A stretch of DNA of 63,032 nucleotides, the filler included, from Reclinomonas americana ATCC 50394 (taxonomy: Eukaryota), in NCBI GenBank assembly GCA_048213135.1. It is 21 parts of 21 records of this genome, joined end to end, with 100 filler letters (N's around TTAATTAATTAA, not from the genome) between each part and the next. Parts side by side here need not be neighbours in the genome. Positions count along the whole stretch, not along the records: positions 41,247 to 43,669 come from AFZH01021891.1; 20 more parts are not named here. The stretch is one strand, 5' to 3'. Numbering within the stretch: the stretch's first letter is position 1; each line of letters starts with the position of its first letter. Positions 36,167-49,105 of this stretch are shown here, piece by piece. The translations under genes were made by a program, and so were the position numbers. The notes under the pieces were generated by a model that was not told where the DNA came from, ran no database searches, and was given only the letters and a program-made list of their open reading frames with translations.

Positions 36167-39100
36167 AAAACACTCGACGGCAAATCGAAGAGGGTCTCTT
36201 TGTCGACGAGCCGCCTCCGGCCTCGGTCAAGGAGCTCATGTGGACGCTGGAGGAGCAGGGCGTGTCGCTGAGTGTGCCGATGGACGCGTTTCGACCGATT
36301 GTGCCGCCGCCGTTGAGCACGCATCACGAGGAGGGTCGGTGGGGCAGTTCAGAACCGCCGCGACGCGATCGGCGATCGGCGGAGCGACTAAAGGCGATGA
36401 GGATGGAGGTGGAGGAGCTGCGTGCGTCGACGCTCAAGTGCTACATTATGGAGTTGGAGGACTGGGCGGCGCGACTGAAGCGAATCGCCGCGCCGTTGAA
36501 GCGCGCGCTCGCCGATGCAGGTCAGTGTGTGACTCAATGTGCGATGTGTCTGAGGCTCACAGGCTTGCTGATTCCCACTTGCAGAGCGCGACTATGAACT
36601 GGCTGTGCTGCACCGGCGACAGGAGCGCATTGCGCAACGCACGACTCGCATGCACATGATGTCGACGTCGGCATCGATGCTGTCGCGACCGCATCCTGTT
36701 GGTGGTTTCGCCACCAAGCTGCGCAGCGTGGTGCAGCAGTCGTCGGCACCCACCTCTGTGTCTCGACACGGCCGCAACTCGTCGCCTGTGTCGCGTGTGT
36801 CCTCGGCCGCCGGAGGAGGCCAGCGACCGTACAGTGCCGGCGACGCCATGCACGGTTTGTTTTCACGCAGCGGTGTCGCTCTGCACGTACTCGGCGCTTA
36901 TTCATTTTGTTTGCGTGCTTCCATCAGCTGCCGCGCCTGCATCGACAACAGTGACTGGTGTGTTATGCATTCTGTCATGCTTTCTTCAGCAGTGCTTTTC
37001 TCAACGCTTGTACAGGCACAGGAAAGCGATCTACGCGTGTCAAGTTGGGCCCGGGTGCACGACCGTGGAATCCGCAGACGCGTCTGCCCTCGGTATGTTC
37101 ACTGGGTGATAATCGCAGCCGCAGGATGTCCTTGCTCACGACGTTGTGCACAGGTGGACAGTGCAACCGCCAAGCCTGCACCTGCACCCGCTCCGGCAGC
37201 TCGACGACTGCCACCAACCAGATCCGCCGAGATAGACAACGGGCGGTCAACGTCTCAGCCACCGCCGTCACGTGGGCGCGTCAATTTTATCAGCGGCGGT
37301 GGTGGCAGCCATCAGGTGACTGCCGGCGGTCGGCCACCACTTGCACCAACAGCTGCACGCACTGCGCACAGTGCAGTGACGCGAGGCGAGTCGGAGGCAG
37401 ATGACGTGCTCATTCAACCGGACAGCGACGACACAATGGAGAAGAAGCACTTGTTTTCACCGGCAAGTCGATCGCCTTCGGAAGCGCTGTCGCCCTCGAT
37501 TGCGGCGTCGTCGCCAGCTGGCGCTCATGGTGGGTTGTTATCGCCGGCGGCAGAGAAGCCGTCGGCTGCTCCTCTGGCAGCACTGGCTTCCTCCGAAGTG
37601 GCCTCGCCTTCAGCCGCCTCACTAGCACAATCGGCTTTGATGTCGCCACCACCGCAGCACCCGCCGTCAGCGTCAGCTGGATCGATGCTGATGTCACCGA
37701 CGGCAGAGAGGCCATCAGCTGCTCCTCTGGCAGCTCTGGCTTCCTCTGAAGTGGCGTCGCCATCCGCTGCGTCGCCTGCTCAATCAGCACTTATGTCACC
37801 ACCACCGCAGCACCAACCATCAGCGTCCGCTGGATCAACACTGATGTCGCCGACGGCAGAGAGACCGTCAGTTGCTCCTCCGGCCGCTCTGGCTTCCTCT
37901 GAAGTGGCATCGCCCTCTGCTGCCTCGCCTGCCCAGTCGGCATTGATGTCACCTCCACCGCAGCACCCCACATCGGCTTCAGCAGGATCATTGATGTCAC
38001 CGACGGCAGAGAGACCGTCAGCTGCGCCACTTGCAGCTTTGGCTTCCTCCGAGGTGGCCTCGCCTTCAGCCGCGTCGCCAGCTCAGTCGGCTCTGATGTC
38101 GCCTCCACCACAGCACCCTACGTCAGCGTCAGCTGGATCGACGCTAATGTCGCCGACGGCAGAGAGGCCGTCGGCTGCTCCACTTACAGCACTGGCTTCC
38201 TCCGAGGTGGCATCGCCCTCTGCCGCCTCGCCTGCCCAGTCGGCATTGATGTCACCGCCACCGCAGCACCCACCGTCAGCGTCAGCTGGATCAGCGCTGA
38301 TGTCACCAATGGCAGAGAGACCATCAGCTGCTCCTCTCGCAGCTCTGGCCTCGTCGGAAGTGGCGTCGCCATCCGCTGCGTCGCCAGCACAATCGGCTTT
38401 GATGTCGCCACCACCGCAACATCCACCGTCAGCATCAGCAGGCTCGACGCTAATGTCGCCGACGGCAGAGAGACCGTCAGCTGCGCCACTTGCAGCTTTG
38501 GCTTCCTCCGAGGTGGCATCACCCTCTGCAGCCTCGCCGGCTCAATCAGCACTGATGTCGCCACCACCGCAGCACCCCACATCGGCTTCAGCAGGATCGT
38601 TGATGTCACCGACGGCAGAGAGACCATCAGCTGCGCCACTTGCAGCTTTGGCTTCCTCTGAAGTGGCCTCGCCTTCAGCAGCCTCGCCTGCTCAATCAGC
38701 ATTGATGTCACCACCACCGCAGCACCCGCCGTCAGCGTCAGCTGGATCGACGCTGATGTCACCGACGGCAGAGAGACCATCAGCTGCGCCACTGGCAGCA
38801 CTGGCTTCCTCAGAAGTGGCATCGCCCTCTGCCGCCTCGCCAGCCCAGTCGGCGATGATGTCACCTCCACCGCAGCACCCACCATCAGCGTTGGCGGGAT
38901 CATTGATGTCACCGACGGCAGAGAGGCCATCGGCTGCTCCACTCGCAGCACTGGCTTCCTCTGAAGTGGCGTCGCCATCTGCTGCGTCGCCAGCTCAATC
39001 TGCATTGCTGTCGCCACCACCGCAGCACCCACCATCAGCGTCAGCAGGATCATTGATGTCACCGACGGCAGAGAAACCATCAGCTGCTCCACTGGCAGCT

Positions 39101-39208
39101 TTGGCGTCTTCGGAGGTGGCTTCACCCTCTGCTGCCTCGCCAGCCCAGTCGGCATTGCTGTCGCCGCCACCCACTCAGCATCACGGCGAGCCAGTCTCGG
39201 CGACCTAA
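36167..39208 (+). CDS. Multi-exon protein with coiled-coil N-terminus and C-terminal Ser/Pro/Ala tandem repeats
   Basis: Exons bounded by ag|...|gt; long open terminal exon ending in TAA at 39206-39208; 5' end uncertain. Confidence 0.7.
37535..39175 (+). repeat. Coding tandem repeat, 11 x 150-153 bp (50-51 aa)
   Basis: Unit LMSPTAERPSAAPLAALASSEVASPSAASPAQSALMSPPPQHPPSASAGS(T). Confidence 0.97.
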
Positions 39209-41246: not shown

Positions 41247-41448
41247 CGGCGCCCCCAGCGATGAGAGCATCGGGAACGGCTTCGCCGACGCATCGGCCAC
41301 GACCTATGTCGCCGATTTCCTCGCCACCAGCGAGGGCGTGCAGCTGACCAAGGCTTTCGTGCGCATCAAGAGCCCGCGCGTGCGCCGGCGCATCGTCGAT
41401 CTCGTCGAATCGCTCGGCGAGACGCCGATCGAAACCATCGAGCAGTAA
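41247..41448 (+). CDS. C-terminal half of a PraR/PhrR-type XRE HTH repressor
   Basis: GAP...YVADFLATSEGVQLTKAFVRIKSPRVRRRIVDLVESL*, characteristic of the rhizobial PraR C-terminus. Confidence 0.88.
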
Positions 41449-41586
41449 CATCCTCGCGAGCTCGGGCCGCGTTCCCGCAAGCGGATCGAACGCCGTTCCG
41501 GACAAGCCGCCTGGGTGGTGCGACACCGGCGTCCATCGCAGCGCAGGAGCTCTGCATGGATGCCGGCGTTCTGTCTTGGCCTGGAT

Positions 41587-41874
41587 CTAGTGCAGGGACG
41601 GTGCCGCGTCCTGAGTCAGGACGAGGGTGTTCCGGTTGAGCCGCTGCAATTGCGGGCTGGGATTGACCAGCAGGAAATCCCTGAGCTTCACCTGGTCCGG
41701 CTCCGACATGGACAGGATCTGCACTGCAAGCCAGAGCTCGTCCGGCAGGTCCATCCGGTAGGCGACATCCACGAGTTCCTGATGCACCGGCTGATTGCGC
41801 AGCAGGGTGGTGAGCAAGCCGAGCGCATATTCGATCTTGTCGCGACTGCTGCCGGTATCATGCTGACTAGCCAT
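41587..41874 (-). CDS. 95-aa hypothetical protein translationally coupled to luxI
   Basis: ATG overlaps the end of luxI (ATGGCTAG) and is preceded by GGAGG; bacterial codon usage. Confidence 0.75.
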   Translation of the reverse strand: MASQHDTGSSRDKIEYALGLLTTLLRNQPVHQELVDVAYRMDLPDELWLAVQILSMSEPDQVKLRDFLLVNPSPQLQRLNRNTLVLTQDAAPSLH

Positions 41875-42508
41875 GCGAGATCCTCCGCTCGCCCGGAGCC
41901 CGCTTCGCGCGATGCGACAGGATCACCGGCGCGTCGATATCCTTGAAGGCGAGGGTGCGGCGATAGGCCTCCTCGCTCACCGTGATGATCGTGCCGACGC
42001 AGTTCATGCCGTCGATCATCGTCGGCAGTCCAAGCGGCCTGACCTCCCAGCCCAACTCCAGGAAGCGGGGCATCCACCAGGTCTCCATCACCACCGTGAT
42101 CGCCGCGATGTCGTTGGCGAGGCAATACTCGAACATGCCCGCGAGAACCGTGTGCAGGATCTTGCTGTCGGTGCCGCGCCGCTCGGGCACGACAAAAATT
42201 CGCGTCCATTCGACGATGTCGCTGCCGCGCTGGAGCCCGCGCACATCGGCCAGGAACGGGAAGACATCCGCCATCAGATGCGGACAGATCGTCGGAACGA
42301 GCCGCGTGCCGCCGACCACACGCCCGTTCTCGATCGCCAGCAGATAGGTCGCGTCGGCAGTGTCGAACTGGTCGATCTCGCGGCCATCGGGCCGTTCGAG
42401 CGCCATCCATTTGCGCTCGCCGACATAGATCTGGTGCCGGATCTTGTAGTGCTGCTCGAGCTCGGCACCGTAGAGGTGCCGGTTCCCGGCATCGATAACG
42501 TGGATCAT
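41867..42508 (-). CDS. Acyl-homoserine-lactone synthase, LuxI family, BjaI/RpaI-like acyl-CoA-using clade
   Basis: RHQIYV..W, EIDQFD, YLL, GGTRLVPT, EWTRIFV, METWW, PLGLP; RBS GGAGG. Confidence 0.95.
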   Translation of the reverse strand: MIHVIDAGNRHLYGAELEQHYKIRHQIYVGERKWMALERPDGREIDQFDTADATYLLAIENGRVVGGTRLVPTICPHLMADVFPFLADVRGLQRGSDIVEWTRIFVVPERRGTDSKILHTVLAGMFEYCLANDIAAITVVMETWWMPRFLELGWEVRPLGLPTMIDGMNCVGTIITVSEEAYRRTLAFKDIDAPVILSHRAKRAPGERRISHG

Positions 42509-42564
42509 CGCCGCCTCCCCTTCCTAGAGGGACGCAGGCTGGCTCCATTCAGGTTTCATGGGTA

Positions 42565-42580
42565 TTCCGGAATTCCGGAA
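42565..42580. promoter_or_regulatory. Perfect 16-bp palindrome upstream of luxI (candidate operator)
   Basis: TTCCGGAATTCCGGAA, 57-72 bp upstream of the luxI ATG. Confidence 0.45.
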
Positions 42581-42638
42581 GATGCGGCCGAAATCAGCGC
42601 GATTCGAACGGTTGTTCCTATCGCAAAAATGGTCCTGC

Positions 42639-42659
42639 CTCTATCGAACACGCATAGAG
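42639..42659. promoter_or_regulatory. Candidate lux-box-like inverted repeat
   Basis: CTCTAT-N9-ATAGAG in the luxR-luxI intergenic region. Confidence 0.4.
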
Positions 42660-42679
42660 ACTGTGGTCACTGACGGCCT

Positions 42680-43411
42680 CTAGATGCTGATCTCGCCGCG
42701 GCGATACGCTTCGATAACCGTGCGCGTGCGCCCCCTGACGCCGAGCTTGCGGGCCGCATTCTCGAAATGGGCCTCGGCCGTGCCGGCCGAAACGCCGAGG
42801 CGCTCCGCCACGCCTTCCGTCGTCTTGCCGATCGCGAACCAGGTCAGGACTTCGCGCTCGCGCACGGTCAGGACATGCTCACGGCGGGCCGGCCGCATGC
42901 AGTCGGCCGCCTTGCCATGGGCGTAGATCGACATCAGGTGGATCGCCGATCTGGCTTGGCGCGACAGGTCCGGCCGGTCGCCTGCCATGGTGACCACCGC
43001 CTGGAAGCCCGCCTCACCGTGAATGGGTACGCAGAAGCCCTCGATCATGTTGAAGTCGCGCGCCCGGTGCATGACCTCGCGCTGGCGCGGCAGTGCCACG
43101 CCTTCCTGATAGACGTCGTTCCAGGCGAAAGGATCGATCGTCGTCTTGCAATGGGCTGCGATCGGGTCCCAATCCGAGAACGACTTCTCCAGATAGAGCT
43201 CGAACCAGCCCGGCGGCCAGCCATTGAGGAGGACGAGCGGGTCGATCCGATCGCCGATTTCCGGCAGGCCGGTGATCAGGAAGGCGTGGAAGCCATAGCT
43301 CGCGAGCTTGTCGCGCAAGGCAGCAACGACCATCGTCGGATCGGCGAGGGTGCTCAGCCGATCGATGAAGTCGAGCGCGTCTCGTCCCGCGTTGAAATGT
43401 CGTCCCGACAT
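42680..43411 (-). CDS. LuxR-family AHL-binding transcriptional regulator
   Basis: GWPPGWFELY, WDPI, FAW, GFCVPIHG; C-terminal HTH LTVREREVLTWFAIGKT..LGVS..KLG. Confidence 0.95.
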   Translation of the reverse strand: MSGRHFNAGRDALDFIDRLSTLADPTMVVAALRDKLASYGFHAFLITGLPEIGDRIDPLVLLNGWPPGWFELYLEKSFSDWDPIAAHCKTTIDPFAWNDVYQEGVALPRQREVMHRARDFNMIEGFCVPIHGEAGFQAVVTMAGDRPDLSRQARSAIHLMSIYAHGKAADCMRPARREHVLTVREREVLTWFAIGKTTEGVAERLGVSAGTAEAHFENAARKLGVRGRTRTVIEAYRRGEISI

Positions 43412-43558
43412 GTCCCGTCTTTTTCCGACCTTAGCAGTTTCAACGCAGAACCGCCAAGAATCAACGCATACCAATGCATACCCATCCAATGCCTGCCAGA
43501 GCCGGCGGTAGACGCGAGGCCGGAAGTGCGGTTGAGTGGGACATGAGGTGAATGGTCC

Positions 43559-43669
43559 ATGCTCAAGAAACTCCCGAATCCGATCGACCGTCATGTCGGC
43601 AGCCGGGTACGCATGCAGCGCATGCTGGCTGGCATCAGCCAGGAGAAGCTCGGCGAGGCACTGGGCCTG
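43559..43669 (+). CDS. N-terminal part of a PraR/PhrR-type XRE HTH repressor (cut by contig end)
   Basis: MLKKLPNPIDRHVGSRVRMQRMLAGISQEKLGEALGL with RBS GAGGTG; missing from the supplied ORF track. Confidence 0.9.
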
Positions 43670-45126: not shown

Positions 45127-45498
45127 ATGCTCCACCGCCCCGACCCATTCAACGCCCAGTGCCCGACGCGGCAGGTGCTCGACCGCATCGGCGATAAATG
45201 GGCGGTGCTGGTGCTGATCCTGCTGGAGCAGGAGACCTTGCGCTTCAACGAATTGCGCCGTCGGATCGACAACATCTCGCAAAAGATGCTGTCGCAGACG
45301 CTGAAGAGCCTAGAGCGCGACGGGCTCATCTCCCGCCGTGCTTTCCCGACCGTTCCCGTCACGGTCGAATATTCGCTGACGCCGCTCGGGCGCACGCTCG
45401 CCAGCACGGTCGCGGCACTGACGCAATGGGCGGAAGCCCATATCGGCGAGGTCGAGGAAGCCCAGCGCCGCTACGATCGCGGCGAGATCGCCGCCTGA
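45127..45498 (+). CDS. HxlR-family winged-helix regulator
   Basis: CPTRQVLDRIGDKW, RFNELRR, ISQKMLSQTLKSLERDGL, VEYSLTPLG; divergent from the oxidoreductase. Confidence 0.93.
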   Translation: MLHRPDPFNAQCPTRQVLDRIGDKWAVLVLILLEQETLRFNELRRRIDNISQKMLSQTLKSLERDGLISRRAFPTVPVTVEYSLTPLGRTLASTVAALTQWAEAHIGEVEEAQRRYDRGEIAA

Positions 45499-48205
45499 TC
45501 AGCGCTTGAGGGAGCGCTTCGGCTTGAAGAAGGCGGCCAAGCATCGTCAGGTGCGCCCTTCTTCGTGACGTCCGGCGCCTTGAAGGCATCGGGCGCCAGA
45601 TCCTTCTCCAGCAGCTCCCAGGCGACCGGCATGGCGACCGCGGCGCCGGGCCGGGCCCGCGTCGAGAACGGCGCGATCGCGGTCGAGCCTCGACCATTGC
45701 GAAGATAGTCGATGAAGATGCGGCCCTTGCGCGCCTTCTTCGACAGGGTGGCGGTGTAGAGCTTCGGCTCGGCCTGTTCCATCGCCTTGGCGAAGTCGCG
45801 GGCAAAACCCTTGACCTCGTCCCACCCCGCCTTGGGCCGCAGCGGCAGCACGACATGGAAACCCTTGCCGCCGGAGGTCTTGAGGAAACTCTCGAAGCCG
45901 AGTTCCTCCAGCCGCTGGCGGACCGTCAGCGCCGCCTCGCGCACGCGTTCGACCGGCACGCCCGGATCAGGATCGAGATCGAAGATGACCTGATCAGGTG
46001 TCTCGATCGCGCCGACTTTGGCGCCCCAGACATGGACTTCGACCGTGCCCAGCTGGACGAGGGCGGCGAGCCCGTCGAAATCGCGGATGAAGAGCAGCTC
46101 CTCGCCGTCCCTGTCCCTCATCCGGGACACGGATTTGTGCAGGCCGGCGCCGGCATGCTTCTGGAAGAAGACCTGCCCGCCGACGCCGTCCGGCGCGCGC
46201 AGCAGGCTCAAGGGGCGTTCGACCACGAAGGGCGCCATGCGCTCCCAGACCCCGGCGTAATAGTCGAGCAGATCCTGCTTGGTGAAGCCGATATCGGGCC
46301 AGAGCGGCTTGTCGGGATTGCTGAGCGTCACGCTGGTCTCCGCTCCTGCCTTGCGCCCGGCCCTCGTCGCCGCCGACGGCTTGTTCGCCCTGGGCTTGAC
46401 CGACTTCTCCTCGACGACCTCATTGGCCGGCTTGTCCTCTCGCAGGCCGAGGAAGGACGCGTGCCGCAGCGTCTTCGAAGCCGTCCAGGAGCCGAAGGCG
46501 ATCTCGGCGACGAGTTCGGGCTTCACCCAAACAATACCACGCTCACGCCCGGCGTCGCCGGGGAAAGGCGAGGCCTTGGCGGCGATGGCGTCGAGCTTCT
46601 TCTTCAACGCGGCGGCAGAGCTGCGCGTGAAACCGGTGCCGACGCGGCCGGCCGGCTTCAGCTCATCGCCCTCGTGATAGCCCAGGACGAGCGAGCCGAG
46701 CTGGTTGCGCGAGGCTTTCGACGGGACATAGCCGGCGATGACGAATTCCTGGCGCTGCGTGCATTTCGTACTTGATCCAGTCGCGGCCGCGACCGCTGCG
46801 ATAGGGCGGCTTCGGCGACGCTTGGAGATCACGCCTNNNNNNNNNNNNNNNNNNNNNNNNNNNNNNNNNNNNNNNNNNNNTTAATTAATTAANNNNNNNN
46901 NNNNNNNNNNNNNNNNNNNNNNNNNNNNNNNNNNNNCTGCGTGCATTTCGACTTGATCCAGTCGCGGCCGCGACCGCTGCGATAGGGCGCTTCGGCACGC
47001 TTGGAGATCACGCCTTCCAGCCCCATGCGGCAGGCATGGCGCAGCATGGTCTGGCCTGGCTCGATGAAATGCTCGGAATAACGCAGAGGCGAATCCGCTT
47101 CGGCAGCCTTGAGCAACTCCTCCAGTCGCTCCTTGCGGGCGAGTAACGGCTCGCGCTGCAGATCCTCACCATCGAGATGAAGCAGATCGAAGGCGTAGAA
47201 GACGAGATTCTCGGCCTTCCCCTCCGACAGCGCGGCCTGGAGCGCGGAGAAGGAGGAGATGCCGCCCTCGCCCAGCGCCACGACCTCACCATCGATCAAG
47301 GCCGTTTCACAAGGCAGTGCAGTGAGTGCGGCGGCGATCCGCTTGCCGAAACGCTCGGTCCAGTCGAGCCCGGTCCGGGTGAGCAGCTTGACCTCGCCAC
47401 CGGAAATCCGGGCTTGCAGCCGGTAGCCATCGAACTTGACCTCATGCAGCCAGGCGTCGCCGGCCGGGGGCTTGTCCTGCAGAATCGCCAGGCAGGGCTC
47501 GACAAAGCGCGGCAGCGGCTCGGCTTCGGTCTTTTCCGAACGGCGGGCCGGCTGGGCAGGGTTGGACTTGGCTCTCGCGGGTTTGCGCCCCTTCGCGGGC
47601 TTTTTGTCGGTCGACCAGACGTCGCCTTTAGGATCTTCGCCAACCTCCTCGACGCTCCTGCCCGACTTCACCGAATCCGGCGCAGTCTCCAGGATATCCT
47701 CGTCATCGCGGGCGAAATCGTCGTCGACCTTGATCAGCAGCCAGTTGTCGCGCTTCTCGCCGCGGCGCGGCTTCAGCCTGACGAGATGCCAGCGGCCGCC
47801 GAGCTTGTGGCCTTCGAGCGTAAAGGCGATATGGCCCTTCTCCATGCCACGGACCGGATCGCTTTCAGGGATCCATTTGCCCTCGTCCCAGACGATCACC
47901 GAGCCGGCGCCATACTCGCCCTCGGGGATCGTGCCCTCGAAGGCGCCGTATTCGAGCGGGTGGTCCTCGACATGGACGGCAAGGCGCTTCTCGCCGGGAT
48001 CGAGGCTCGGGCCCCGCGTCACCGCCCAGGACCAGAGCACGCCGCCATGCTCCAGCCTAAGATCGTAGTGGAGACGACGCGCGGCATGCTTGTGGATGAC
48101 GAAGGCGCCGCTGCTCTGCGCTGCCTTGCGGCGGCTGGTGGCGCCTTTCGGCTCGCGGGTGCGGGAGAAGTCGCGTTTCGAGCGGTAGAGATCGAGATTG
48201 GCCAT
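45499..48205 (-). CDS. ligD: NHEJ DNA ligase D (phosphoesterase-ligase-polymerase), split across overlapping contig ends
   Basis: HAARRLHYDLRLE (PE); EVKFDGYR and EGVISKR (ligase); FDLDP, KTSGGKGFH, IFIDYLRN (polymerase). Likely true stop at 45499-45501 after a 1-nt error. Confidence 0.95.
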
Positions 48206-48223
48206 GGCGTCCTCCGACGCGCG

Positions 48224-49105
48224 TCAGGCGCTCTTTTTGGCCTTGCCGGCAGCAGGCTTCTTCGCCGGTTTGCCCGTACTCGCCGGCTTCTTGCCGCTGG
48301 AGGAGGAGGATTTGCCGGACGCCCCGCTCTCCTCGCCGAGGCTCTTCTTCAGGGCCTCGAACAGGTTGACGACGTTGGACGGGCGCTCGGCCGGTTTGGC
48401 GACCGGCGGCTTCTTGCCCTTGCGCTTGGCCGCGATCAGCTCGAGCAGCGCCTCTTCATAGCGATCCTCGAAGCCGCTGGGATCGAACTTCGCCTCTTTC
48501 TTCTCGATGATGTGCGTGGCGAGATCGACCAGTTCCGCGTCGAGCTTGCCCTTGCGCAGCCCGTCGAAGACCTCGTCCGGCTGGCGCACGGTCTTGTCGT
48601 AGCGCAGCGTCGTCAGCAGCAAGCCCTTGTCGAAGGGCTCGATCATCACCGGCCGCTCGCGGCGATAGAGCACGATGCGGGCAATGCCGGCCTTCTTCTG
48701 CTTCGCCATCGCCTCGCGGATCACGGCGAAGGCCTCTTCCGAGACTTCGTCGGAGGGGCTGAGATAATAGGGTTGGTCGAAATAGATCTGCGGGATCGCG
48801 GCGCGGTCGACGAACTGCTCGATCGAGAGCGTGTGCGAGCTCTCGATCTGGACCGCGTCGATCTCGTCCTCCTCGATCAGCAGGTATTCGTCGCCGCCGA
48901 TCTCGTAGCCCTTGACCTCGTCATCGGGATCGACCGGCTTGCCGCTGACGCTGTCGATGTACTGACGGCGCACGGTATTGCCGGTCTTGCGGTTGATCAC
49001 GCGGAAGGAGACCTTCTCGCTATGGTCGGTCGCCGAGGTCAGCTCGACGGCGCAGGAGACCAGCGAGAGCTTGAGATAGCCCTTCCAGGCCGGCCGGGGC
49101 GCCAT
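48224..49105 (-). CDS. ku: NHEJ Ku protein
   Basis: MAPRPAWKGYLKLSLVSCAV, VKGYE, FDPSGFEDRY, NVVNLFEALKKSL, basic tail. Confidence 0.97.
   Translation of the reverse strand: MAPRPAWKGYLKLSLVSCAVELTSATDHSEKVSFRVINRKTGNTVRRQYIDSVSGKPVDPDDEVKGYEIGGDEYLLIEEDEIDAVQIESSHTLSIEQFVDRAAIPQIYFDQPYYLSPSDEVSEEAFAVIREAMAKQKKAGIARIVLYRRERPVMIEPFDKGLLLTTLRYDKTVRQPDEVFDGLRKGKLDAELVDLATHIIEKKEAKFDPSGFEDRYEEALLELIAAKRKGKKPPVAKPAERPSNVVNLFEALKKSLGEESGASGKSSSSSGKKPASTGKPAKKPAAGKAKKSA

Follow-up and report, generated by a model that had tools for sequence, protein, structure and literature searches.

A luxI-coupled small gene of a new family within a duplicated praR locus of Bosea: a candidate PraR antagonist

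Does a quorum-sensing cassette lying between two copies of a PraR-type repressor gene carry an antirepressor packaged with its own target? This question is raised by positions 41247..43669 of the window, a stretch of 63,032 nucleotides from the Reclinomonas americana ATCC 50394 assembly (GCA_048213135.1, here G000) that joins 21 contigs through N-padded linkers. In this segment, luxR, luxI and a gene for a 95-aa small protein, here named orf95, are accompanied by two genes of the XRE repressor family. In Rhizobium leguminosarum, the product of a small gene co-transcribed with luxI, CinS, attaches to PraR and prevents it from binding DNA, as described in PMC4149787 and PMC5977203, and the earlier note on this DNA used CinS as the precedent for an antirepressor circuit; the precedent is apt, and a second one, MmaP of Methylobacterium, was missing there. 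In one Bosea lineage the cassette interrupts the core praR locus, leaving a full-length copy on each side, and we rate the chances as about even that Orf95, as a member of a new family, antagonizes PraR in the manner of CinS and MmaP and comes packaged with a PraR copy of its own.

The segment corresponds to one entire contig (G000:C6424, 2423 bp) with N-linker padding on both sides, and the G000 assembly is eukaryote-like (108 Mb in 16,441 contigs). Since this contig shows 99.4% identity to Bosea vestrisii (locus L002) across all 2423 nt, it is bacterial DNA in a eukaryote-like assembly; the neighbouring contig C6425 matches L002:513-1039 at 100%. The contig begins and terminates within praR genes, so that both XRE genes are cut by the assembly, and Logan contigs from runs X1 and X4 are broken at the same praR repeat. 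The cassette had been described as self-contained, an appearance that arises because its ends are the ends of the contig. That the contig is short, comes from a mixed assembly and ends inside both XRE genes, and that its lnt and metK flanks were searched for in G000 and not found, could also suggest an assembly artefact with a spurious open reading frame (ORF). This explanation is extremely improbable and is refuted by the complete loci in relatives, as 15 loci from named genomes and 8 long loci from metagenomes show the identical gene order and orf95 itself is under selection (see below).

All three genes of the cassette are co-oriented, as the earlier note had it, and lie on the minus strand: luxR (42680..43411; 243 aa, with the PF03472 autoinducer-binding domain and the PF00196 GerE helix-turn-helix domain), luxI (41867..42508; 213 aa, PF00765) and orf95 (41587..41874). 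The small ORF and luxI overlap by 8 nt (ATGGCTAG); contrary to the earlier note, the orf95 ATG does not overlap the luxI stop codon itself. A Shine-Dalgarno-like GGAGGA (41881..41886, minus strand) lies within the 3' end of luxI, 6 nt before the orf95 ATG. The 5' part of the first XRE gene, praR-B (43559..43669, plus strand; 100% identical to L002:4206-4316), starts divergently, its distance to the luxR ATG being exactly 147 bp; the 3' part of the second, praR-A (41247..41448, plus strand; 100% identical to L002:6430-6627), converges on orf95, both as previously described.

Conservation and selection both demonstrate that orf95 is a real gene rather than a chance ORF. Its homologues directly behind luxI are 87-100% conserved in 16/16 genome loci, and the ratio of nonsynonymous to synonymous substitution rates (dN/dS) over 19 loci is 0.089 for orf95, compared with 0.11 for luxI and 0.07 for luxR. 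Both the 8-nt overlap and a GGAGG at the junction are present in 20/20 loci, and the same overlap is retained in distant orf95 homologues. The family comprises 32 clusters with 74-100% identity, whose named members are nearly all Bosea. A search of 1.84 billion representatives returned seven matches, including one spurious repeat protein (P0036), and the orf95 profile found G001 as the sole genuine match among 401 order-level genomes, five further weak matches there looking like off-frame or antisense noise. Pfam and NCBIfam scans of orf95 and its relatives gave no family above the cut-off, and an ESM Atlas search with orf95 gave nothing usable.

The predicted Orf95 model has four helices followed by a C-terminal beta-hairpin (predicted local distance difference test score, pLDDT, 68.5). 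Fold searches with this model and with that of a second small-protein family described below stayed at the level of noise (the best Z values were 4.3 and 4.0, and Foldseek had no match at E<=0.001), the C-terminal domain of CapH (7t5w) likewise being found at noise level with both models (Z 3.7, root-mean-square deviation (rmsd) 1.4 over 33 aa; Z 3.2, rmsd 1.2 over 35 aa). Two ideas on Orf95 found no support: residues 46-70 as a mimic of the PraR C-terminal hairpin, proposed by eye, had profile scores within the range of shuffles, and the N-terminal half as a degenerate XRE helix-turn-helix (hhalign E 0.053) did not beat shuffles. An hhalign comparison of orf95 with PraR revealed no homology, with 10/60 shuffles scoring as high.

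The two flanking XRE genes are true praR orthologues, as the earlier note supposed, judging by the lnt-praR-metK-trmB synteny that also defines praR in PMC10790750. In relatives, corC, lnt and praR-A are followed by the oppositely oriented orf95, luxI and luxR and then by praR-B, metK and trmB; in B. vestrisii (L002) the two XRE genes are different full-length genes encoding 139 aa (praR-A) and 137 aa (praR-B). Both copies flank the cassette in 14 of the 16 genome loci, the remaining two being short and containing praR-A only. Among 111 Bosea genomes, praR is present in 109 and a close orf95 in 18, and all 18 of the latter possess a praR pair with luxI in between (17 on one contig; split in G089). 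A single-copy lnt-praR-metK-trmB arrangement was found in 19 of 20 fetched core loci and in G028, while the twentieth fetched locus belongs to a cassette genome. Although initially described as an independent module adjoining a praR-like gene, the cassette is inserted at the core locus of praR, which is now duplicated.

Phylogenetic analysis of PraR (6 loci dropped as near-duplicates or, in two cases, distant XREs) places the A and the B copies each in one clade, the two clades being mutually sister (97/98). As in XRE repressors of the PraR/PhrR/CdxA group, the helix-turn-helix domain is N-terminal; A and B are identical at 67 of its 73 positions, and the corresponding profile (A6) matches the C.BclI and 434 repressor structures with E-values from 7.5e-9 to 1.6e-6. 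Upstream regions, compared with 4 near-duplicate loci left out, retain an ancestral motif in 19/20 praR-A and 14/20 single core copies and in 0/20 praR-B. This layout probably arose once, either because the core praR was duplicated or because a module that carried praR integrated by a single crossover.

On a rival view, praR was duplicated merely as a side effect of integration through recombination inside praR and is functionally unconnected with the cassette, so that Orf95 would have another target. The direct-repeat geometry fits such an integration, as does the layout in G032 (see below), which is a circular permutation of that in the window; extra praR copies also occur without the module. 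Compared with the core gene over residue ranges (6 loci left out), praR-A is nearer at residues 2-30 and praR-B at residues 59-92 and 116-137, as a single crossover predicts, but praR-A is again nearer at residues 93-115, which makes the chimera signal mixed. Further points against a by-product are that both copies are intact and distinct, with copy-specific residues fixed across 20 loci, and that adjacency to praR is met again outside Bosea, in further genera, as well as in more than one LuxI clade; besides, integration via praR would imply that the module already carried a praR. We consider a purely incidental duplication quite unlikely.

The module and an extra praR also co-occur beyond the split core locus. 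A close extra praR copy is present in 25/25 Bosea genomes with an orf95-family gene and in 3/86 others at a cut-off of E<=1e-53, which was chosen after seeing the data; a cut-off of about 1e-49 gives 5/86. Six of these genomes have a distant 116-aa orf95 homologue behind a luxI of 70% identity without an adjacent praR, and the same six carry an extra praR (72-75% identity) elsewhere. In G032, luxR, luxI and a 109-aa ORF converge on a praR copy of their own that lies away from the core site; this orf109 was missed by the first profile and was placed in the family by a 26% alignment, the conserved core residues, the same 8-nt overlap and its position. A G032-type small ORF was also seen fused to a LuxR autoinducer-binding domain in a 203-aa protein (P0047) on one Logan contig, which reflects either a deletion or a misassembly. 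In the PraR tree, the extra copies fall at three separate positions, each next to the core gene of the same lineage (97/98, 93/79 and 88/87). The hexamer AACGCA occurs upstream of 20/20 praR-B genes and 7/7 other module-linked extra copies, and upstream of none of 20 praR-A, 20 core and 12 other copies (background 2.3%); it was picked post hoc, and its distances differ (73, 83-96 and 147 nt). The match around the hexamer is long for G032 and at hexamer level only for the six genomes with distant homologues.

Both known precedents resemble the Bosea locus in organization. As in the CinR-CinI-CinS/PraR system of R. leguminosarum bv. viciae, the small gene lies directly behind luxI and the XRE gene is a praR orthologue by lnt/metK/trmB synteny; the differences are a BjaI/RpaI-type synthase in Bosea and a praR that is duplicated around the cassette instead of unlinked. 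We recovered a CinS-like ORF of 63 aa that directly follows, and is coupled to, the gene of a synthase of 221 aa, which we take to be CinI (L209, L210); the published CinS has 67 aa. The second precedent, the 59-aa MmaP of Methylobacterium fujisawaense, is co-transcribed with mmaI and co-purifies with PraR in a pull-down, as reported in PMC10790750, and its sequence was recovered at L176 by three primer-derived motifs. The Mma system likewise has co-oriented luxR, luxI and small ORF and a praR recognized, as here, by its metK-trmB neighbours, and falls in the same bacterial family sample (that of G001). It differs in the size of MmaP and in MmaI, which belongs to another LuxI clade, and in that, according to the available text of that source, praR was found by BLAST and is not beside the quorum-sensing genes.

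As a positive control, the CinS-like ORFs (L209, L210) and the MmaP family (L151-L180) were compared by hhalign and proved homologous by sequence (score 23.3, E 2e-4, 48 columns, 0/60 column shuffles as high), a relationship of which the available text of PMC10790750 gives no statement that we could find. The 95-aa Orf95, with its predicted helices and beta-hairpin, matches neither: the scores were 9.8 with the CinS-like protein (E 0.3, 23/60 shuffles as high) and 8.2 with the 27-member MmaP alignment (E 0.38, 36/60 shuffles as high), and the two combined gave E 0.55. Since the control links CinS-like proteins to MmaP, orf95 is by sequence outside their family, in agreement with the suggestion of a new family in the earlier note. 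Nevertheless, it may work like CinS and MmaP. The same logic of a small protein taking an XRE repressor off DNA is reported for SinI/SinR of Bacillus subtilis (PMC4149787, PMC10688885), with the difference that neither sequence nor fold comparisons supported the idea that orf95 mimics the C-terminus of PraR.

What signal would feed this module? The closest solved relatives of LuxI are 6wn0, a 4-coumaroyl-HSL (homoserine lactone) synthase (E 2e-54), and 5w8c (E 2e-53), followed at a distance by 3p2f (E 1e-12) and LasI (E 9e-9). Residues W144-W145 align with the WW of 5w8c and 6wn0, and such a two-Trp indole platform marks acyl-CoA use among LuxI-type synthases according to PMC8188788. Because of this proximity and the platform, LuxI is assigned by its sequence to the acyl-CoA-using BjaI/RpaI class. 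The BjaI/BjaR1 and RpaI/RpaR systems share with Bosea the type of synthase (E about 1e-54) and the WW platform, but no small-ORF/PraR arm is reported for them in the texts available to us.

Upstream of luxI, at 72 nt from its ATG, there is a perfect 16-bp palindrome (TTCCGGAATTCCGGAA; 42565..42580), which is near-invariant in 20/20 close loci and has a related counterpart at equal distance to luxI in all 8 distant-module loci examined; we read it as a predicted LuxR site (lux box). The divergent luxR/praR-B promoter region (43412..43558) spans 144-147 bp in 19/20 loci and contains an 11-mer (43458-43468) that is invariant in 20/20. A scan for sigma-70 promoters and terminators found none. RNA-labelled runs, represented by contigs only, have flat depth with genes and spacers covered alike and are no sign of expression, and neither is the higher depth of one X1 contig over metK/praR-B.

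Combined, these elements suggest the following circuit. LuxI would probably produce an acyl-CoA-derived acyl-homoserine lactone (AHL); LuxR with bound AHL would recognize the palindrome and drive luxI and orf95 jointly, as the conservation of the site and the gene overlap suggest. Orf95 may then bind PraR-A, PraR-B or both and take them off DNA in the manner of CinS and MmaP. By its position next to the promoter region shared with luxR, praR-B might set the threshold of the response or feed back on luxR. Overall, Orf95 would probably lift PraR control at high cell density, a sign of action that we propose on the basis of the CinS/MmaP precedent and the linkage of the module to an extra praR.

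Several observations weigh against this proposal, in addition to the lack of homology to CinS and MmaP and the post hoc choice of both the cut-off and the hexamer. The 25/25 co-occurrence represents three lineages, not 25 events. Three Bosea genomes (G020, G036 and G075) have a close extra praR without the module, and in G063, one of the six genomes with a distant homologue, the ORF is frameshifted (L023:5059-5420) with luxR, luxI and the extra praR intact. The PraR box CAAC-N5-GTTG described in PMC5527310, natural sites of which may carry 2-3 substitutions, was not found with <=1 mismatch anywhere in G000:C6424, including the luxR promoter. Finally, luxR and luxI adjoin the core praR in G783 and G746, where a small ORF was not seen, so the linkage may concern LuxR or LuxI and not the ORF.

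Some of these facts are better accommodated if Orf95 acts on the quorum-sensing pair, as a LuxR anti-activator or a LuxI accessory, and the link to praR is transcriptional, with PraR-B and LuxR regulating each other, or metK and thereby the supply of S-adenosylmethionine (SAM), through the shared divergent promoter. The ORF is always coupled to luxI and is not always adjacent to praR (away from it in 6/25 Bosea genomes), and metK, which follows praR-B, provides the SAM that is a LuxI substrate. In R. leguminosarum, rhiR and raiR, both of the luxR type, are among the targets repressed by PraR according to PMC4149787. In Burkholderia cenocepacia, BCAM1871, a genus-restricted gene co-transcribed behind cepI, alters AHL activity; it differs from orf95 by its size (254 aa) and by having no PraR in the available account (PMC3356288). 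On the other hand, binding to PraR was seen for each of the two luxI-coupled small proteins tested in Alphaproteobacteria, and deletion of mmaP left the signal unchanged (PMC10790750). Moreover, the six genomes with the ORF and praR apart still retain the extra praR, a family locus without luxRI (L138) retains a praR-like gene together with an ORF of the second family, and the luxR promoter has no full PraR box. We regard an action of Orf95 on LuxR or LuxI as the main alternative, though a less likely one than antagonism of PraR.

The tie between praR and luxI-coupled ORFs extends beyond Bosea. Among 301 genomes of the family with 180 PF00765 matches, 40 luxI loci were fetched, many of them with coupled small ORFs; 14 control genomes had no PF00765 match, so that those searches had no positive control, and no luxI match was found on pMRAD01. 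A second small-protein family, with 175 clusters and named members from Microvirga, was detected in 11/301 genomes (a twelfth weak match, E 0.009, was ignored). In nine of the Microvirga-type loci, praR is divergent from luxR-luxI-ORF, as on the right side of the cassette in the window; of the others, one has a broken praR, two have no praR in the stretch, and L138 has a praR-like gene and the ORF without luxRI. The LuxI proteins of the Microvirga-type and Bosea loci form one clade with the WW motif (FastTree support 97), where 16/22 rows are praR-adjacent, and across LuxI clades praR adjacency requires at least seven forced changes, weak XRE matches included. Both small-protein models, that of the Microvirga-type ORF having a pLDDT of 82 and no fold match, end in helix-helix-strand-strand, and homology between the two families was not detected by hhalign (E 0.21-0.36; 39/60 shuffles as high).

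Further features of these loci deserve mention. The Microvirga-type ORFs at L131-L137, L142 and L143 encode 64-82 aa and have their own conserved lux-box-like motif upstream of luxI. G532 carries three copies of the ORF, one with a praR-like gene only (L138:2992-4059) and one beside a frameshifted praR (L139:4495-5301). The luxR/luxI genes located directly upstream of the core praR-metK with no small ORF seen (L150:1945-4141 and L144:3760-6330) include synthases that are sister to the MmaI clade. Another family of 70-73-aa ORFs lies behind two LuxI types (L086-L088, L093, L094 and L101), and homology to the other families was not detected for it. At L201-L204, ORFs with a WAWEFLRRN motif directly follow TraI-like synthases; presumably they resemble FseA/DUF2285-type activator genes of integrative and conjugative elements.

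Elsewhere in the window, adjoining bacterial contigs at 45471-49105 contain an ORF split over two contigs and a second ORF, whose translations suggest LigD and Ku, respectively. In the preceding, eukaryote-like contig, an 867-aa ORF at 36605-39208 contains numerous Ser/Ala/Pro-rich repeats, nearly identical to one another and each some 50 residues long.

Bosea massiliensis is reported to produce AHL (PMC4732077), and Microvirga to have LuxI homologues (PMC12919014), neither source mentioning the present loci in its available text. Our literature search, from which subscription journals were largely absent, returned no description of the Bosea locus or of a praR-linked luxRI cassette. The logic of a small protein acting on PraR is itself already known from CinS and MmaP. 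Across Alphaproteobacteria, genes for biofilm, swarming and symbiosis are under PraR control, with only two small-protein inputs known, and distinct anti-repressors may remain undiscovered, as PMC10688885 notes. The B. vestrisii locus provides a culturable, named candidate for such an input, in which a new protein family has both of its possible targets adjacent. That praR is repeatedly linked to luxRI, in Bosea as well as in Microvirga, suggests a circuit much more widespread than has been reported. A broader reading, which we put forward tentatively and hold to be possible rather than probable, is that PraR is a general output hub of quorum sensing in Hyphomicrobiales that has been captured repeatedly, the Bosea Orf95 and the 82-aa protein of Microvirga being independent PraR antagonists besides the CinS/MmaP family that travel as four-gene modules with a dedicated praR under its own promoter. 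If so, the module would plug a new signal into the core PraR regulon of its host, and in this lineage metK would sit behind the promoter shared with luxR.

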